Shown: one piece after another, positions 5,718 through 51,254 of the stretch
Layout: each line of letters starts with the position of its first letter
Position numbering within the stretch: the first letter of the stretch is position 1
NCBI GenBank assembly: GCA_951406725.2
Contig: OX597817.1
Coordinates: forward strand, 152,768,001 to 152,832,000
Direction: 5' to 3'
Length of the DNA: 64,000 nt
Source of the DNA: Octopus vulgaris
Lineage: Eukaryota
The notes under the pieces: generated by a model
What the model saw: only the letters and a program-made list of their open reading frames with translations
Databases searched by the model: none
Told to the model about the DNA's origin: nothing
Position numbers and translations under genes: made by a program

Positions 5718-5939
5718 CTTTATTGCCCACAAGGGGCTAAACATAGAGGGGACAAACAAGGACAGACAAAGGGATTAAGTCGATTACATCGACCCCAGTG
5801 TGAAACTGGTACTTTTATTTATCCACCCCGAAAGGATGAAAGGCAAAGTCGACCTCGGAGGAGTTTGAACTCAGAACGTAACGACAGACGAAAAACCGCT
5901 AAGCATTCCTTCCGGCGCGCTAACGTGTCTGTCAGCTCG

Positions 5940-7306: not shown

Positions 7307-7890
7307 ACTTTTCTATTCTAGTCACAAGGTCCGAAATTTTTGGTGAGGGGGTGGGGGGCAGTTGATTAGATCGAATCCATTACGCAACTGGTACCTAATT
7401 TATCGACTCCGAAAGGATGAAAAGCAAGGTTGACCTCGGCAGAATTTGAACTTAGAATGTAAAGACAGACGAAATACTTATTTCTTTACTGCCCACAAGG
7501 AGCTACACACAGAGGAAACAAACAAGTACAGACAAACGGATTAAGTCGATTATATCGACCCCAGTGCGTAACTGGTACTTATTTAATCGACCTCGAAAGG
7601 ATAAAAGGCAAAGTCGACCTCGGCGGAATTTGAACTCAGAACGTAACGGCAGACGAAATACCTATGTCTTTACTACCCGCAAGGCGCCAAACACTGAGAG
7701 GACAAACAAGGACAGACAAACGGATTAAGTCGATTACATCGACCTCAGTGCGTAACTGGTACTTAATTTATCGACTCCGAAAAGGATGAAAAGATGAAAA
7801 GCAAAGTTGACCTCGGTGGAATTTGAACTCAGAACGTAACGGCAAACGAAATACCGCTAAGCATTTCGTTTCTGCCAGCTTGCCGCCTTC
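7307..7890 (-). mobile_element. SINE family B trimer
   Basis: Three roughly 180-bp units; perfect 15-bp TSD atacgcataatatat at 7292-7306 and 7891-7905. Confidence 0.9.
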
Positions 7891-10215: not shown

Positions 10216-10976
10216 ATATATATTAATAATACAGGGTAAAAATCATCAATGATTTTACCAAGGGGTCAGCGCGGAATTAAAAACCTTGTAGGTAAATTTT
10301 ACAAATATTTTAATAAGTATCATCAATAATATTAATACGCTAACTTTTTGTTTTTGTACGTAAGTGTTGTGTGCGTCTCACTTACTTCAAAGAAGTGGCA
10401 AAACGAGAGAGAGGAGAACAGAGAGGAAGTAAGAGAGAAAGAGAGAGAGTGTAAAAGAGTCAGTGAGTGGTGATGGCGTTTGTTTTGTGTTTTTAAATAC
10501 TTATCACATCGCAAGAGAAGTAGATACATAGATATATACACACGTTGTTAAATCAAAAGCCGGTGAGAAGAGGGACACAAAAGAAGTGAAAGAGAAAGAG
10601 AGAAAGTGAGAGAGACAGTAGATACATAAATCCAAAGAAAAGTTCATATACAGATACATAGACACAGCAAATATTGGCTGTCAATTTCACTTTTCATTAC
10701 TAAACGGGGATAAAATTAACTTATAAATGGCTGAGTAGTCCACAGACATGCATAACATTAACGTAAGTTTCAGGGAGATTCAGCCTCACACAGAATATGG
10801 CAAGGCAGGCCCCTTTGAATTACAGCTACAACTCGAGACATATATATATGAACGTATTTTTGTGTGTGTATAGTTAAAACATGTTTGCAATAATAAGTGT
10901 CGTGTGGTGGAAATAAACGTAATTACCAAATTTTCATCCATAAATCCATTTATTATATCATTCTTTTGCATTTCAA

Positions 10977-11228
10977 TTGGTACATTTGTACTCAGAAATT
11001 TTCAACAACTGCACGCCAGACGAAATGGAAAAACGAGAAATTTTATTTCCTAAAAATTCTGACTGTCTTGCAATGAATGAAAAAGTTCTTAATATTATAC
11101 CAGAAGCACTTAAATCGTACTTAAGCACAGATTCAGTGTCCTGCAATAATGAAGAGCTGGTTTATAACTATCCATTTGAATTCATAAACTCACTCACTCC
11201 ATCCGGTATGCCTCCTCATCGCCTCAAC
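10977..11228 (+). pseudogene. Helitron Pif1-family helicase fragment
   Basis: ILFPKNSDCLAMNEKVL...YLSTDSV...YPFEFINSLTPSGMPPHRL matches the Helitron RepHel helicase segment; truncated by a SINE. Confidence 0.85.
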
Positions 11229-11579
11229 CAATTGACTCCGGGTTCAGCCTCACTGCGTGATACTTTGTTTTTTTTCTATATTGTTTTCTTCTGTAGCCTT
11301 TGGATCAACCAAAGCTTTATGAGTAGATTTGGTAGACGGAAACTGAAAAAAAAAAAATAATATATACATGCATGCGTGTGTATCTTTGTGTTTGTCGCCC
11401 ATCATGGCAAGACAACCGGTGTTGGTGTGTTTACGTGACCGTTACGGTTTGGTTCAGAAAAAAGAGAGTGATTAAATAATTACCAGGCTTAAAAAAAGGA
11501 CCGGAGTCGATTCGTTCACCTATAATTCTTCAAGGCGGTGCCCCAGTATGGCTACAATCTAATGACTGAAAGAAGTAAA

Positions 11580-11625: not shown

Positions 11626-11761
11626 CAATAAATGGTGGGGTTGTGTTGACCGCACGTGGAGAAATGATAAGTAAGGAAAAATTTTTTTAAAAATGCAGAA
11701 TGCTCAAATGAAAGAAAATTTTAATAAAATGAGAAATTGATAAAATATATAAATATATATT

Positions 11762-11802
11762 TATTCAACCGGTTTTCGTCATTGTATGACTTGTCAAGAA
11801 TA
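11762..11802 (-). ncRNA. Minimal hammerhead-like motif, U3:A8 variant (left arm)
   Basis: Reverse complement of 13743-13783. Confidence 0.65.
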
Positions 11803-12429
11803 TTTATGTTTTAAAAAGTTTTTTTAAAAATTAGAAAGGGGAAAAAAGAAAATTGCATTGTTTTTTGTAAAAGAATAATGATAAAAATGTACAAAAATTA
11901 AAAAATAAGTTCTCCGATACATTGTGAGTTCGTTGTGTATCTTGAGTTTTATGGTTGTTTACGAAAAAATTACCTTGAGGTGTTAAGATCCAAAGGGATT
12001 AAGAGCATGTGTTGTGTTGTTAAATTCAGCATGTTTGCAGGACAGGAAGTAGTAGTAATTGTGGTCCTGGTTCTTCAGTTCCTGTGTTGTGAGTAAGGGG
12101 AGACAACTCTTTTGAGTTCTTCAATAAAACCCAAATTATAAAATTATCATTTTAGCTTCATTTGCGTTATCTTTTTTATATAATTGCTTGTTAACTTAAC
12201 TTTCAGATTTTAACACTTTATTTATATTATTTTCTAATTATATAAATCTGCATAGACAATTGCATTTCAAATTGTCATATCATTTATAATAAAAATGATA
12301 GTAATAACAACAATAGTAAAAATGATATTTAAAGAATATAAGTTTTAGCTTGAAGTGATGAATGCATGGTATCTTTATATATTTGTGTTAGTCCATCCAT
12401 GAAGAGTGAGGTAGAGAAAGGAAGTTTGA

Positions 12430-12893
12430 TCAACGAGGAGTTTGCATATTAAGTTGTGTTTGGAATTTTTCCATAAAGAGATTCTCCTTGTTAATTCTCT
12501 CCTGTGTGGTGATCCCGTCTTTACATTGGTAGAAGGGGAATATATAGAATTTGGGGTTTAAGTCTTTAGCACATGAGTCTAAGTGGTCACTCAGTGGAAT
12601 TTGTCGGTATTCCGGGAGATTAGGTTGGGTGGTTTTCAGTGTAGTGTTGTCTAGTTCTTTGGCGCGTTTTATTCCATACTCTATAAGGGTGGAGGGATAT
12701 TGACGTTGTAATAGTGTTTTTTTGAGGTCTTGAAGGCGTATTTCTCGTGTTTTTGGATCCGAGACAATGGTGCATACCCTTTTAGCTAAATTGAAAGGGA
12801 TATTTGTCTTGGTGTGTTTTGGGTGGCATGAACTAAAGAGAAGGTATTGTTGTGAGTCTGTAGGTTTGTGGTAGATGTCTGTTATGATTTCGT
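12430..12893 (-). pseudogene. PLE reverse transcriptase thumb fused in frame to the GIY-YIG C-terminus
   Basis: TDIYHKPTDSQQYLLFSSCHPKHTKTNIPFNLAKRVCTIVSD is the PLE RT C-terminal motif (YxKPT..YL..S.HP); followed by ...ERINKENLFMEKFQTQLN. Confidence 0.88.
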
Positions 12894-13115
12894 AAACGAG
12901 TAACGGTGCATAAAGAACAAATAAATCTCCCGGAATACCGACAAATTCCACTGAGTGACCACTTAGACTCATGTGCTAAAGACTTAAACCCCAAATTCTA
13001 TATATTCCCCTTCTACCAATGTAAAGACGGGATCACCACACAGGAGAGAATTAACAAGGAGAATCTCTTTATTGAAAAATTCCAAACACAACTTAATATG
13101 CAAACTCCTCGTTGA
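12891..13115 (+). pseudogene. PLE GIY-YIG endonuclease C-terminal half
   Basis: RKRVTVHKEQI...SDHLDSC...ERINKENLFIEKFQTQLN retains the R, H, E and LN hallmarks of PLE GIY-YIG domains. Confidence 0.8.
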
Positions 13116-13742
13116 TCAAACTTCCTTTCTCTACCTCACTCTTCATGGATGGACTAACACAAATATATAAAGATACCATGCATTCATCACTTCAAGCTAA
13201 AACTTATATTCTTTAAATATCATTTTTACTATTGTTGTTATTACTATCATTTTTATTATAAATGATATGACAATTTGAAATGCAATTGTCTATGCAGATT
13301 TATATAATTAGAAAATAATATAAATAAAGTGTTAAAATCTGAAAGTTAAGTTAACAAGCAATTATATAAAAAAGATAACGCAAATGAAGCTAAAATGATA
13401 ATTTTATAATTTGGGTTTTATTGAAGAACTCAAAAGAGTTGTCTCCCCTTACTCACAACACAGGAACTGAAGAACCAGGACCACAATTACTACTACTTCC
13501 TGTCCTGCAAACATGCTGAATTTAACAACACAACACATGCTCTTAATCCCTTTGGATCTTAACACCTCAAGGTAATTTTTTCGTAAACAACCATAAAACT
13601 CAAGATACACAACGAACTCACAATGTATCGGAGAACTTATTTTTTAATTTTTGTACATTTTTATCATTATTCTTTTACAAAAAACAATGCAATTTTCTTT
13701 TTTTCCCTTTCTAATTTTTAAAAAAACTTTTTAAAACATAAA

Positions 13743-13783
13743 TATTCTTGACAAGTCATACAATGACGAAAACCGGTTGAATA
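13743..13783 (+). ncRNA. Minimal hammerhead-like motif, U3:A8 variant
   Basis: tattc-TTGACAA-gtcat aca atgac-GAAA(A)-ccgg-TT-gaata: helix I, core, helix II, palindromic loop III; one extra A. Confidence 0.65.
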
Positions 13784-13871
13784 AATATATATTTATATAT
13801 TTTATCAATTTCTCATTTTATTAAAATTTTCTTTCATTTGAGCATTCTGCATTTTTAAAAATTTTTTTCCT

Positions 13872-13924
<53 letters not shown>

Positions 13925-15708: not shown

Positions 15709-16994
15709 GTCTGTCTGTCTGTCTGTCTGTCTCTATTTATACATATACATAGATATTGATAGCTACCCTGACTCATGTATGGTTAGCTTGTCTAATAAAT
15801 AAAACATAGCGTCGTACTACACTTTGTACACACTATATACATCCCACAAATGCGTTTGTAATATCTTTCTGCAATATCAACACACACACACACACACACA
15901 CACGCACATATTGACAGGCACGTACATGTACTCACACACACACACACACGGACTGCAGTGCTTGTTGCAACAATAATGCACACAGGCACACTCACGGATG
16001 TTCTTCACTGCAACGTTAATATAAGCATACAAACATATGATACACGCCGACACACATACACACACACACTGCATGGCGTACCTCATTACAACATTAATAC
16101 ACAGACACACATACACACATGGTTTACACATACACGCACATACAGAATGATACCATCCTGCTATAACATTAACACACCCATCCACATTACTGTACATTAA
16201 CACCATCAGCAATCAGTGCATATATCGATTTGCACAGGTGACCTACTTTGCTTCAATTTCCTCTCAAACAACATACTGTCCCTTTTACTTCATGTGTCTA
16301 CTTAAATTGTCTCTCAAAAAACATAGTGTTTTTTTTTTATATATAAAATGTCTGCCTAAGTTGTCTCTTAATCTATACAATGACCCTTTTACATCATATC
16401 TCTAACTAAAATATCGCTCAAACAACATACTATCTTTTCTACCTTTAAACTGTTTACTTAAATTATCTCTTAAATAGCTCGGCTGTCTTTTTTATCTCAA
16501 CTGTCTACTTTGCTTCTGAAACAATAGACTGTCCCTTTTGCTTCAAACATCTACTTAAACTGTCCCTCAAAGTCTCCTTTTTTCCGCAAATACCTACCCT
16601 GTTTTTTTACAGACAACTTATCTCTTAAACGACATGGTGTCCCCACTCAGTTTATGTTTCCTCCTAAATTGCCTTGCAAACAAAGCAATGCTTCTTTTAT
16701 TTCATCTACCTTGCCTCTCAAACAAAAGTGAGGTTTTTGCTTCCTTAATTGTATACCTAAATGATCTCAAAAGCAACACAGTGTCTCTGTTTCCTCAAAT
16801 GTCTACTTGAATTATCTCGTAAACAACAGTGTCCTCTTCACCTCAACTGTTTGACTGAATTATTTCTCCAGCAACTGTATCTCTTTTGTTTCGACTGTCG
16901 ATTTGAATTGTTTGAAAATAGAAAAAAAAAGTACAATTTCCATTTTGTCCAAATGTCTAACAAAATCGCCTTTCAAGCAAAACAATATCTCAGC

Positions 16995-17301
16995 TGCAGC
17001 GTGGAAGGTGTTTGTAAGCCATTTAAGAAACACACAAAAGCCGTTCGATTCACTTCAGCATTTAAGTTTAATTTGTCAAAATATTTTCGTCGCTTTAAGA
17101 CCGCGACCTGTTCACTGACAAAAATCCGTGCTGTCTTAAAGCGACGAAAATATTTTGACAAATTAAACTTAAATGTTGAAGTGAATCGAACGGCTTTTGT
17201 GTGTTTCTTAAATGGCTTACAAACACCTTCCACGCTGCAATTGTTTTCGTTTCAGTACACGATCTCACATCAAATCACTTGCTATGCAAGTACATCTCCG
17301 T
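16995..17301. mobile_element. Fold-back PLE-type element with hammerhead
   Basis: 107-bp arms at 16995-17101 and 17133-17239, then a 3' extension; flanking aatatctca repeat at 16984 and 17302; second family copy at 51059-51201. Confidence 0.8.
17072..17122 (-). ncRNA. Minimal hammerhead-like motif, G3:C8 variant
   Basis: Minus strand: tttgtca-GTGAACA-g-gtcgc ggtcttaaa gcgac-GAAA-atat-TT-tgacaaa (7-bp helix I, 5-bp helix II). Confidence 0.7.
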
Positions 17302-17544
17302 AATATCTCAACTGTCTGCTTAAACTGTCTCACAAAAAATAGTCTCCTTTCCTCAACTGTCTTTGAAGCTGTACAGTGTTTCTCTTTCTGTTATTTACGT
17401 AAATTAGTTCTCCCTCGAACAAAATGGTGTATTTTTCAACACCGACTGCCTTCGTACAATTCTCTCTTTCTTTTCGAGCCTTCGGACTCATAAAGTCGGT
17501 TACCCAGTCTTCATGGTATATACAAGTGATCTATATCATGACGC

Positions 17545-17745
17545 GTTCGAGGCCAGCAATTTTGAAGGGATGGAACAAATCTAATACAACGACCCAGTAC
17601 TTGATTGATACTTTATTTTATCGATTATAGATGAATGAAAGGCAAAGTTGACCTTGGAGGGGTTTGAACTCAGAACTTAAAAATTCAAAAGAAATGCTGT
17701 ATGGCATTTTGTCCGACTCGCTGACGATTCTACCAGCTCATTGCT
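17545..17745 (-). mobile_element. SINE family B, diverged
   Basis: atgaaaggcaaagttgacc...tttgaactcagaac. Confidence 0.75.
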
Positions 17746-28044: not shown

Positions 28045-28700
28045 TTTGTGAGAAAAAACAGCATCATAATGCAATTCACTCTGTAAGAAATTTGGAAACG
28101 ACATGCTGTACTGCTTAGTATTCGCGCCGGAAGCTCTAATATGAACATTTCAGAGTGTTTGGGTGTCAAGCTAAGTCCCGAAAACAAGTACCGAGAGTTA
28201 TAAAAATCAAGCATCCAGTCAACATCATGGTGTTTGGAGTGATCACTAGTGACGTTATGCCGCCATTCATCTTCCTACACGGCCTCAGACTCAACTCGGA
28301 GGCCTACATCAAGTGCCTGGAGGAGATAGTGATGCCCTGGGTCAAAAGAGTGGCTGCTGGAAGACCCTGCCACACGATCAGGAGAACGCAGTCATGGCTG
28401 TCAGACAATTTCTACAACCACATCGCCCCTAACATCTGGCCACCTAACTCCCCAGACTGCAACCCCTTGATTATTATGTGTAGGGCGCAGTTAAGCGTCC
28501 TACACATAGTACAGAACTTCTTGTAATACTAAAGATGGACTAAAGGCAAGGATTATGGCAGCATTCACCAACTTAAACAAGGAGACTGTTCAGAAGAGTT
28601 GCAGGAGATTTCGAAGTCATCTGGAAGCCGTGGTTGAAGCCAATGGCGATTTTATTGAATAAATTTACTCTTTAGTATTTCAAGATATTTTTATGTAATA
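28045..28700 (+). mobile_element. maT/DD37D-type Tc1-mariner relic
   Basis: KHPVNIMVFGVI, PPFIF..GLRLN...YI, WPPNSPDCNPL motifs. Confidence 0.82.
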
Positions 28701-51018: not shown

Positions 51019-51058
<40 letters not shown>

Positions 51059-51198
51059 TACAGCACAGAATTTTGTCAGTGAACAGGTCACGGTCTCAAA
51101 GCGACGAAAATATTTTGACAAATTAAATTTAAGTGTTGAAGTGAATCTAACGGTTTTTGTGCGTTTCTTAAATGGCTTATAAACACCTTACCTGCTGC

Positions 51199-51201
<3 letters not shown>
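51059..51201 (+). mobile_element. Solo copy of the 16995 family with G3:C8 hammerhead (51072-51122)
   Basis: tttgtca-GTGAACA-g-gtcac..gcgac-GAAA-atat-TT-tgacaaa; between (TA)n tracts. Confidence 0.75.

Positions 51202-51254
<53 letters not shown>

Follow-up and report, generated by a model that had tools for sequence, protein, structure and literature searches.

The closest described relatives of the sequences analysed here are the minimal hammerhead ribozymes (min-HHRs) of Penelope-like elements (PLEs). As presented by Cervera and de la Pena (2014; PMC4209133), they lie in the terminal repeats of the elements (pLTRs), have an extra base between positions 9 and 10.1, a G10.1-C11.1 pair, a long helix II and a tiny palindromic helix III, commonly carry U17 and are mainly found as dispersed solo copies. 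In that account, their cleavage in vitro is poor even as dimers. Fig. S3 of the same article displays 56 motifs, among which we counted by eye 53 with C3:G8, two with U3:A8, one with U3.G8 and none with G3:C8. In PAc, a Poseidon element of Anolis (Frangieh et al. 2024, PMC11167929), the hammerhead is located at the pLTR-ORF junction, the targets are AT-rich, and two start sites of reverse transcription inside the ORF define the tail. According to that report, cleavage of PAc requires its protein, its insertion in vitro is independent of cleavage, and a C3G/G8C double mutant partly restores cleavage. A review (PMC8495972) likewise presents this double mutant as a partial laboratory rescue; thus, the chemistry of a swapped 3:8 pair is not new. 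Compensatory changes at 3:8 also exist in nature, in the form of U3:A8 hammerheads (Perreault et al. 2011, PMC3088659; PMC4209133). For C17 hammerheads, G3-C8 is mentioned as having lower activity than with G17 (PMC3884650). A 2020 review (PMC7761336) refers to the role of hammerheads in PLEs as a mystery.

Here we describe hammerhead motifs with G3:C8 in a window of 64,000 nucleotides of Octopus vulgaris (contig OX597817.1, positions 152,768,001 to 152,832,000), to which the coordinates below refer. They share with the min-HHRs of PMC4209133 the location in the pLTR, the structural features listed above, U17 and the predominance of dispersed solo copies, and differ from them by the G3:C8 pair. 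As in the published account of PAc (PMC11167929), the motif lies at the pLTR-ORF junction and the targets are AT-rich. In contrast with PAc, where it is a laboratory rescue mutant, G3:C8 is the natural state here.

A hammerhead motif with an inverted 3:8 pair

The motif at the first locus (17072..17122, minus strand) has the layout of a minimal type I hammerhead: a three-way junction, with helices I (7 bp) and II (5 bp) around the core, open at helix I. One core strand, G3-U4-G5-A6-A7-C8-A9, occupies 17109..17115 of the minus strand (G3 at 17115, C8 at 17110), and the other, G12-A13-A14-A15.1, occupies 17085..17088 of the same strand. All of U4 G5 A6, A9, G12 A13 A14, the A15.1:U16.1 pair and H17 are thereby present. 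The literal consensus C3 and G8 is absent, and a strict CUGANGA descriptor misses the motif. Positions 3 and 8 are nevertheless Watson-Crick complementary, as they are in the related families described below (families A and D having G:C, B and C having C:G, and a more distant family U:A). The hallmarks of min-HHRs are found as well, namely an extra base, here a G, between A9 and G10.1, a helix II beginning with G10.1-C11.1, and a minimal palindromic helix III. From the hammerhead numbering, the scissile bond is predicted between U17 (17079) and U1.1 (17078) of the minus strand (17078..17079), in a UUU triplet.

Two details of the preliminary description of this DNA need correction. It held the UUU triplet to be unusual, but this triplet fits the NUH rule and is ordinary, since U17 is present in 24 of the 56 motifs of Fig. 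S3 in PMC4209133, where the oyster (Crassostrea) motif has UUU. It also described a self-complementary AUAU loop; a palindrome is indeed there, but helix III consists of two pairs within AAUAUU, and the loop itself is UA.

The second motif (51072..51122, plus strand) has the same core. The coordinates and sequences first given for the two loci are correct, and so is the identity of their cores and 7-bp helices I; only two of the 51 bases differ (49/51 identical). Fold prediction at the first locus recovered helices I and II, with pair probabilities of 0.99-1.0 for helix II and 0.87-1.0 for six of the seven pairs of helix I. The folding z-score was -2.35, and 5 of 200 shuffled sequences folded equally well. 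The opposite strand folds just as well (z -2.41), so that folding alone cannot choose the strand, and it is the core that decides it. At the second locus, a G-to-A change at 51090 creates an A.C mismatch in helix II, with pair probabilities of at most 0.47 and a z-score of -0.48. Because its helix II is broken in this way, the second locus is a decayed copy.

No match to the Rfam hammerhead models was found in the window, either at the gathering threshold or at E-values up to 10. This result is uninformative, because a sister motif with the canonical C3:G8 pair (L082) has no match either. A degenerate hammerhead-like string (UGA..GUCC-GAA-GG..GAAA; 17470-17495, minus strand) is present ~350 bases from the first locus and may be due to chance.

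Both loci are copies of a dispersed terminal repeat

We searched the genome, a microsatellite-rich assembly of 2.8 Gb in 227 contigs. An initial search gave 565 repeat candidates, and a 25-base pattern with positions 3, 7 and 8 left free had 3,898 exact matches, while the reversed-pattern control had none. The two loci had been taken as independent; they are in fact copies of one dispersed repeat. Their shared core had been offered as evidence of conservation, but the two copies differ at only 14 of 140 bases, and an identical core is then expected by chance with p 0.48 for 7 nt or p 0.25 for 13 nt. Thus, the argument from two loci carries no weight.

The terminal repeat unit is ~204 nt long. 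Among 216 arms from 297 loci, the 5' ends cluster at unit positions 3-5 (136 arms) and the 3' ends at 144-150 (66 arms) and 201-206 (114 arms). These two 3' ends match the two sites of reverse transcription start described for PAc (PMC11167929). Many insertions consist of a direct arm and an inverted, truncated arm, with a ~60-nt tail usually on one arm only, and (TA)n runs flank many copies of the unit. Such an organization corresponds to that described for PLEs in PMC8557442.

The first locus illustrates this organization. Its direct arm (16995..17134, minus strand) covers unit positions 3-142 and ends at the first of the two recurring 3' ends. The second arm of the same insertion (17134..17303, plus strand) is inverted and 5'-truncated; it covers unit positions 37-206 with the ~60-nt tail and lacks the 5' core strand. 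It includes the first ~30 codons of the RT/GIY-YIG ORF of the element (17212..17303, plus strand), whose start lies within the terminal repeat at unit position 115. The insertion is bordered by a 13-bp target-site duplication (16984..16996 and 17302..17314, plus strand), with 12 of 13 bases identical between its left and right copies. We considered a MITE as the source of this inverted repeat and rejected it, as both arms derive from a single directional unit that is truncated to a different extent in each. The second locus is a solo copy in a (TA)n run (51055..51202, plus strand); its first base is a G that is not encoded by the parent. Elsewhere in the genome, two loci (L008 and L014) harbour tandem arrays of 4-5 units with (TA)n spacers of differing length; as natural multimers, they could be a source of dimers if they are transcribed.

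The parent is a Penelope-like retrotransposon

An extension upstream of the unit was seen in 433 copies. Of 30 such loci fetched, 7 matched a GIY-YIG query, 4 of them on the same strand, ~950 nt upstream. A query with an RT fragment gave 65 close matches among 150 scored, and the G3:C8 motif was present in 6/6 of the stretches fetched by RT similarity. One locus (L171) has the arrangement pLTR-ORF-pLTR, with one in-frame stop. The longest open frame (P0003; 1,025 aa) contains YVDD, a CX3CxxC linker and a GIY-YIG domain (Pfam, E 1.8e-5). It has no Pfam RT match, the YVDD being read directly from the sequence, and no PDB match. The ORF N-termini of family A, to which the parent belongs, and of family C (both described below) share 39% identity over 104 aa (E 1e-25). 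The parent thus has the attributes of EN+ PLEs, i.e. a single ORF with RT and C-terminal GIY-YIG, a tandem pLTR-ORF-pLTR arrangement, inverted 5' copies and a tail at one end.

The hammerhead motif lies inside the pLTR, at the 3' end of the 3' UTR of the element, and again 5' of the ORF in tandem copies. The ORF begins 56 nt 3' of the predicted cut; this distance and the ~60-nt tail distinguish the element from PAc as published (PMC11167929). A CX2-5CxxC linker before GIY-YIG marks the Neptune and Nematis clades (Craig et al. 2021, PMC8557442). Because its CX3CxxC linker precedes GIY-YIG, we assign the parent to the Neptune/Nematis type, a placement based on the linker and hence putative. Both window loci are copies of the terminal repeat of this Neptune/Nematis-type Penelope-like retrotransposon, a membership that the preliminary description overlooked. 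By its position and architecture, the motif is almost certainly a PLE min-HHR.

The small size of the unit (~200 nt) and the arrays at L008 and L014 could also evoke a non-autonomous retrozyme or SINE replicating via self-cleaved circular RNA, particularly as retrozymes are described as PLE-derived in a preprint (bioRxiv 10.64898/2026.07.22.740005). Non-LTR retrozymes have no ORF-bearing parent; in contrast, such a parent with the same repeat exists here, and most copies are solo or inverted. Besides, the ends of the units fall on the inferred transcription start and on two internal sites rather than on the cut site, and array units are spaced by (TA)n of varying length. We regard this origin as highly improbable.

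Other features of the window

A 5'-truncated copy of a more distant, fifth Penelope-like family is present at 11670-13875 and contains an inverted duplication of 952 bp without mismatches. It carries a hammerhead-like motif with U3:A8 at 13741-13785 (plus strand), mirrored at 11760-11804 (minus strand). This motif has either a helix III mismatch at 15.2:16.2 or a G17 variant with one extra base. An ORF fragment in the same copy (12430-12975, minus strand) has no Pfam match; we take its motifs to resemble those of PLE proteins. Two other ORF fragments have motifs presumably related to a Tc1/mariner transposase (28140-28526) and to a Helitron helicase (10944-11360). The window also contains ~11 copies of another short SINE-like dispersed repeat (at 5836, 7556-7839, 17590-17680, 24264, 40807, 41081, 56562, 60649, 60833 and 61014).

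Covariation of the 3:8 pair across families

We compared the core among related families. The pair counts were made without the MAFFT alignment, in which helix III of family D was misplaced. In family A, to which the window loci belong, 79 of 85 arms that were selected independently of the core have G3:C8, and the other six carry single changes. A hand count gave G:C at 3:8 in 95 of 100 matches listed of 3,898. Family D is an older relative, with 81% identity to A downstream at majority level (107/132). By hand count, 49 of its 73 matches have G:C, 3 have C:G and resemble family B, 1 has U:A and 20 have other combinations, 18 of which are one change away from G:C; a scripted count gave 23/30 G:C.

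Family B has C3:G8, but its 41 matches were themselves selected with a C3:G8 pattern. Its downstream sequence is homologous to that of A (55% identity), and two B loci reach GIY-YIG remnants. Family C, found by protein similarity, also has C3:G8; it comprises 5,801 candidates and includes intact ORFs of 1,311-1,312 aa, and its protein is 55% identical to that of A over 815 aa. In the fifth family, U3:A8 is found in 100 of 100 matches listed of 462. Since C3:G8 is the outgroup state, G3:C8 is, on these sequence comparisons, a derived state common to A and D. The motif is thus a type I hammerhead with an inverted 3:8 pair, as first described, and from the family counts the inversion is a fixed, compensated trait of the family. 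By our reasoning, U3:A8 keeps the pyrimidine:purine order and can be reached via a U.G wobble, whereas G3:C8 inverts the order and would need a mismatched intermediate or a double change.

We looked for a C3:G8 subfamily within family A and found none; three candidate matches belong to sister families, and L089 is a single copy. In the latter (L089:1490-1545), the direct arm has C3:G8 and the inverted arms G3:C8, which may reflect either conversion by a family B sequence or two mutations.

Other parts of the motif covary as well. Both partners have changed at 10.4:11.4 (A and D have G:C, B and C have A:U), at 15.2:16.2 (A:U versus G:C between families), at 2.3:1.3 (U:A versus C:G in C) and at 2.6:1.6 (U:A in A but G:C in D). 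Families A and B, with a downstream identity of 55%, do not differ at any of the nine remaining core bases (0.55^9 ~0.005). Between A and D, N7, loop II, the length of helix III and 19% of the downstream sequence have changed, while G3:C8 and the nine other core bases were kept.

These data bear on the possibility of a dead ribozyme, in which two unrelated founder substitutions were complementary by accident and then spread with the success of the family. Chance complementarity has a probability of ~1 in 3 once both sites have changed, and the L089 copy that is back at C3:G8 indicates that double hits or gene conversions occur. The persistence of G3:C8 and of the nine other core bases from A to D, despite the changes just listed, and the compensation of the helix changes argue against it, and we deem such an accident very unlikely.

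The preliminary description had proposed to look for preferential conservation of core and helices over the flanks across copies. Within family A, this was borne out modestly. Non-CpG divergence is 2.1% in the core (18/846), 3.1% in the helices (52/1,665), 19.5% in loop II (115/590) and 4.2% downstream (353/8,408). Changes that define subfamilies affect 4/8 positions of loop II and 1/30 of the core and helices, the single one keeping a G.U pair. Fisher tests of the conservation contrast gave p 0.002-0.004, values that overstate it as the copies share ancestry. G12 is deaminated in 5/84 copies, as are other CpG sites, a pattern that neutral decay following insertion would produce.

Transcription start and copying of the RNA

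We examined the 5' flanks of 100 matches listed of 1,248. The upstream sequence of the parent is found in 45 of them. The remaining 55 have G (31), C (15), A (5) or T (4) where the parent has C (hand count), and ~8 of the G cases could derive from the inverted arm. A G absent from the template is a trace of cap copying in other retrotransposons. Since short copies often begin with such a non-templated G (51055-51056 in the window; L178-L207), we infer a transcription start ~15 nt upstream of helix I. For the copy at the second locus, it would be at 51056, just after the non-encoded G. The sequence upstream of the fixed 5' end resembles a splice acceptor with its branch point, but we saw no common upstream exon. 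A capped transcription start fits the fixed 5' end better than splicing. With either origin of this end, the bulk of the integrated DNA was copied from uncut RNA.

Evidence on cleavage

We estimate that at least ~98% of the arms run intact across the predicted cut site. To look for fossil traces of cleavage, the 5' ends of truncated copies were counted by hand per unit position, the cut site being position 59. Ends at 59 numbered ~40 of 95, compared with ~33 of 71 at position 57 (some 15 of them by microhomology), ~22 of 92 at 58 and ~12 among 100 matches listed of 193 at 60 (~23 overall). At the distant control positions, we counted ~10 among 100 matches listed of 120 (position 67) and ~12 of 91 (position 80). 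Ends at the cut site (~40) are thus more numerous than at 67 and 80 (~12 each), but not clearly more so than at the neighbouring positions 57, 58 and 60 (22-33). No sharp peak at 59 was seen among 100 copies listed of 557 (4, 5, 6 and 7 ends at 58, 59, 60 and 63, respectively) or among ~31 (TA)n-flanked loci (4 ends at 59, 5 at 66).

A dimer fold is possible, but in the model it gains no more than 0.6 kcal/mol over a pair of monomers, and the AAUAUU duplex by itself amounts to -0.2 kcal/mol. We identified no loop-loop contact. A dependence of the motif on dimers would fit the min-HHR class as described in PMC4209133.

Family C has C at position 9 in 26/30 loci and an A.C mismatch in helix I, and it is the most active family seen. 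Because it thrives with A9C and this mismatch, an intact core is not required for success. Its copies (L175-L177, L094-L123) look young, with intact ORFs, and the family is very active with a defective-looking core.

The motif might be hammerhead-shaped but catalytically idle, its stems being maintained for a structural or protein-binding function in the 5' leader or through overlap with promoter signals, and the swap being tolerated and not favoured for cutting. The success of family C points in this direction, as do, in the report on PAc (PMC11167929), catalytic mutants without effect on insertion in vitro and the lack of RNA-seq ends at the site in Anolis. Almost every copy is uncut, and the motif lies 18-68 nt 3' of the inferred start, where internal promoter elements could sit. 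However, a lone 3:8 pair gives no stability to the secondary structure, yet three different Watson-Crick pairs occupy 3:8 across families. This pair reportedly forms in the active fold, a point attributed to Martick and Scott in 2006. Moreover, changes affect loop II and N7 but spare the unpaired bases of the core. We consider an idle motif unlikely, and residual cleavage by the family A motif probable.

The best overall explanation, to which we give a probability of about 0.7, is a PLE minimal type I hammerhead in which C3:G8 was replaced family-wide by G3:C8 and which likely self-cleaves slowly, as a dimer or assisted by the protein of the element. Reverse transcription would start at two sites within the first codons of the ORF and run back to the capped 5' end, and such copying would yield the thousands of solo or inverted copies of ~145 and ~204 nt, both window loci included. 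The swap would have arisen once, in the ancestor of families A and D, via a mismatched state. As insertions do not each depend on cutting, such an intermediate is possible, and the swap may then have been retained on account of the place of the 3:8 pair in the active fold. The likely role of the motif would be the occasional cutting of read-through tandem transcripts or the removal of the capped leader, at a rate slow enough that nearly all RNA gets copied uncut.

Novelty and significance

We found no natural G3:C8 in the part of the published hammerhead literature that was searched; two further studies, Lunse et al. 2017, the largest survey of PLE variants, and Przybilski and Hammann 2007, on the exchange of 3:8, could each bear on novelty. 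A search of IMG/VR with one fixed pattern gave a single G3:C8 match versus ~1,200 estimated for C3:G8. By eye, this match (L238) shows a good helix II and lacks helix I, and it is probably due to chance.

Searches based on CUGANGA miss entire families of thousands of copies. The O. vulgaris genome harbours four different cores (C3:G8, G3:C8, U3:A8 and A9C) on comparable scaffolds, and would thus permit a direct comparison of how much activity the elements require. The long-kept natural purine/pyrimidine inversion of the 3:8 pair suggests selection on active-site geometry. A bolder possibility, which we regard as clearly less likely than not, is that this is the first G3:C8 hammerhead in nature that is both catalytically active and fixed in a lineage, having persisted through the separation of two Penelope-like families. 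If so, the surplus of copies that begin at the predicted cut site would document past cleavage in vivo, and selection would act on the active fold of these motifs even though insertion can do without cutting.
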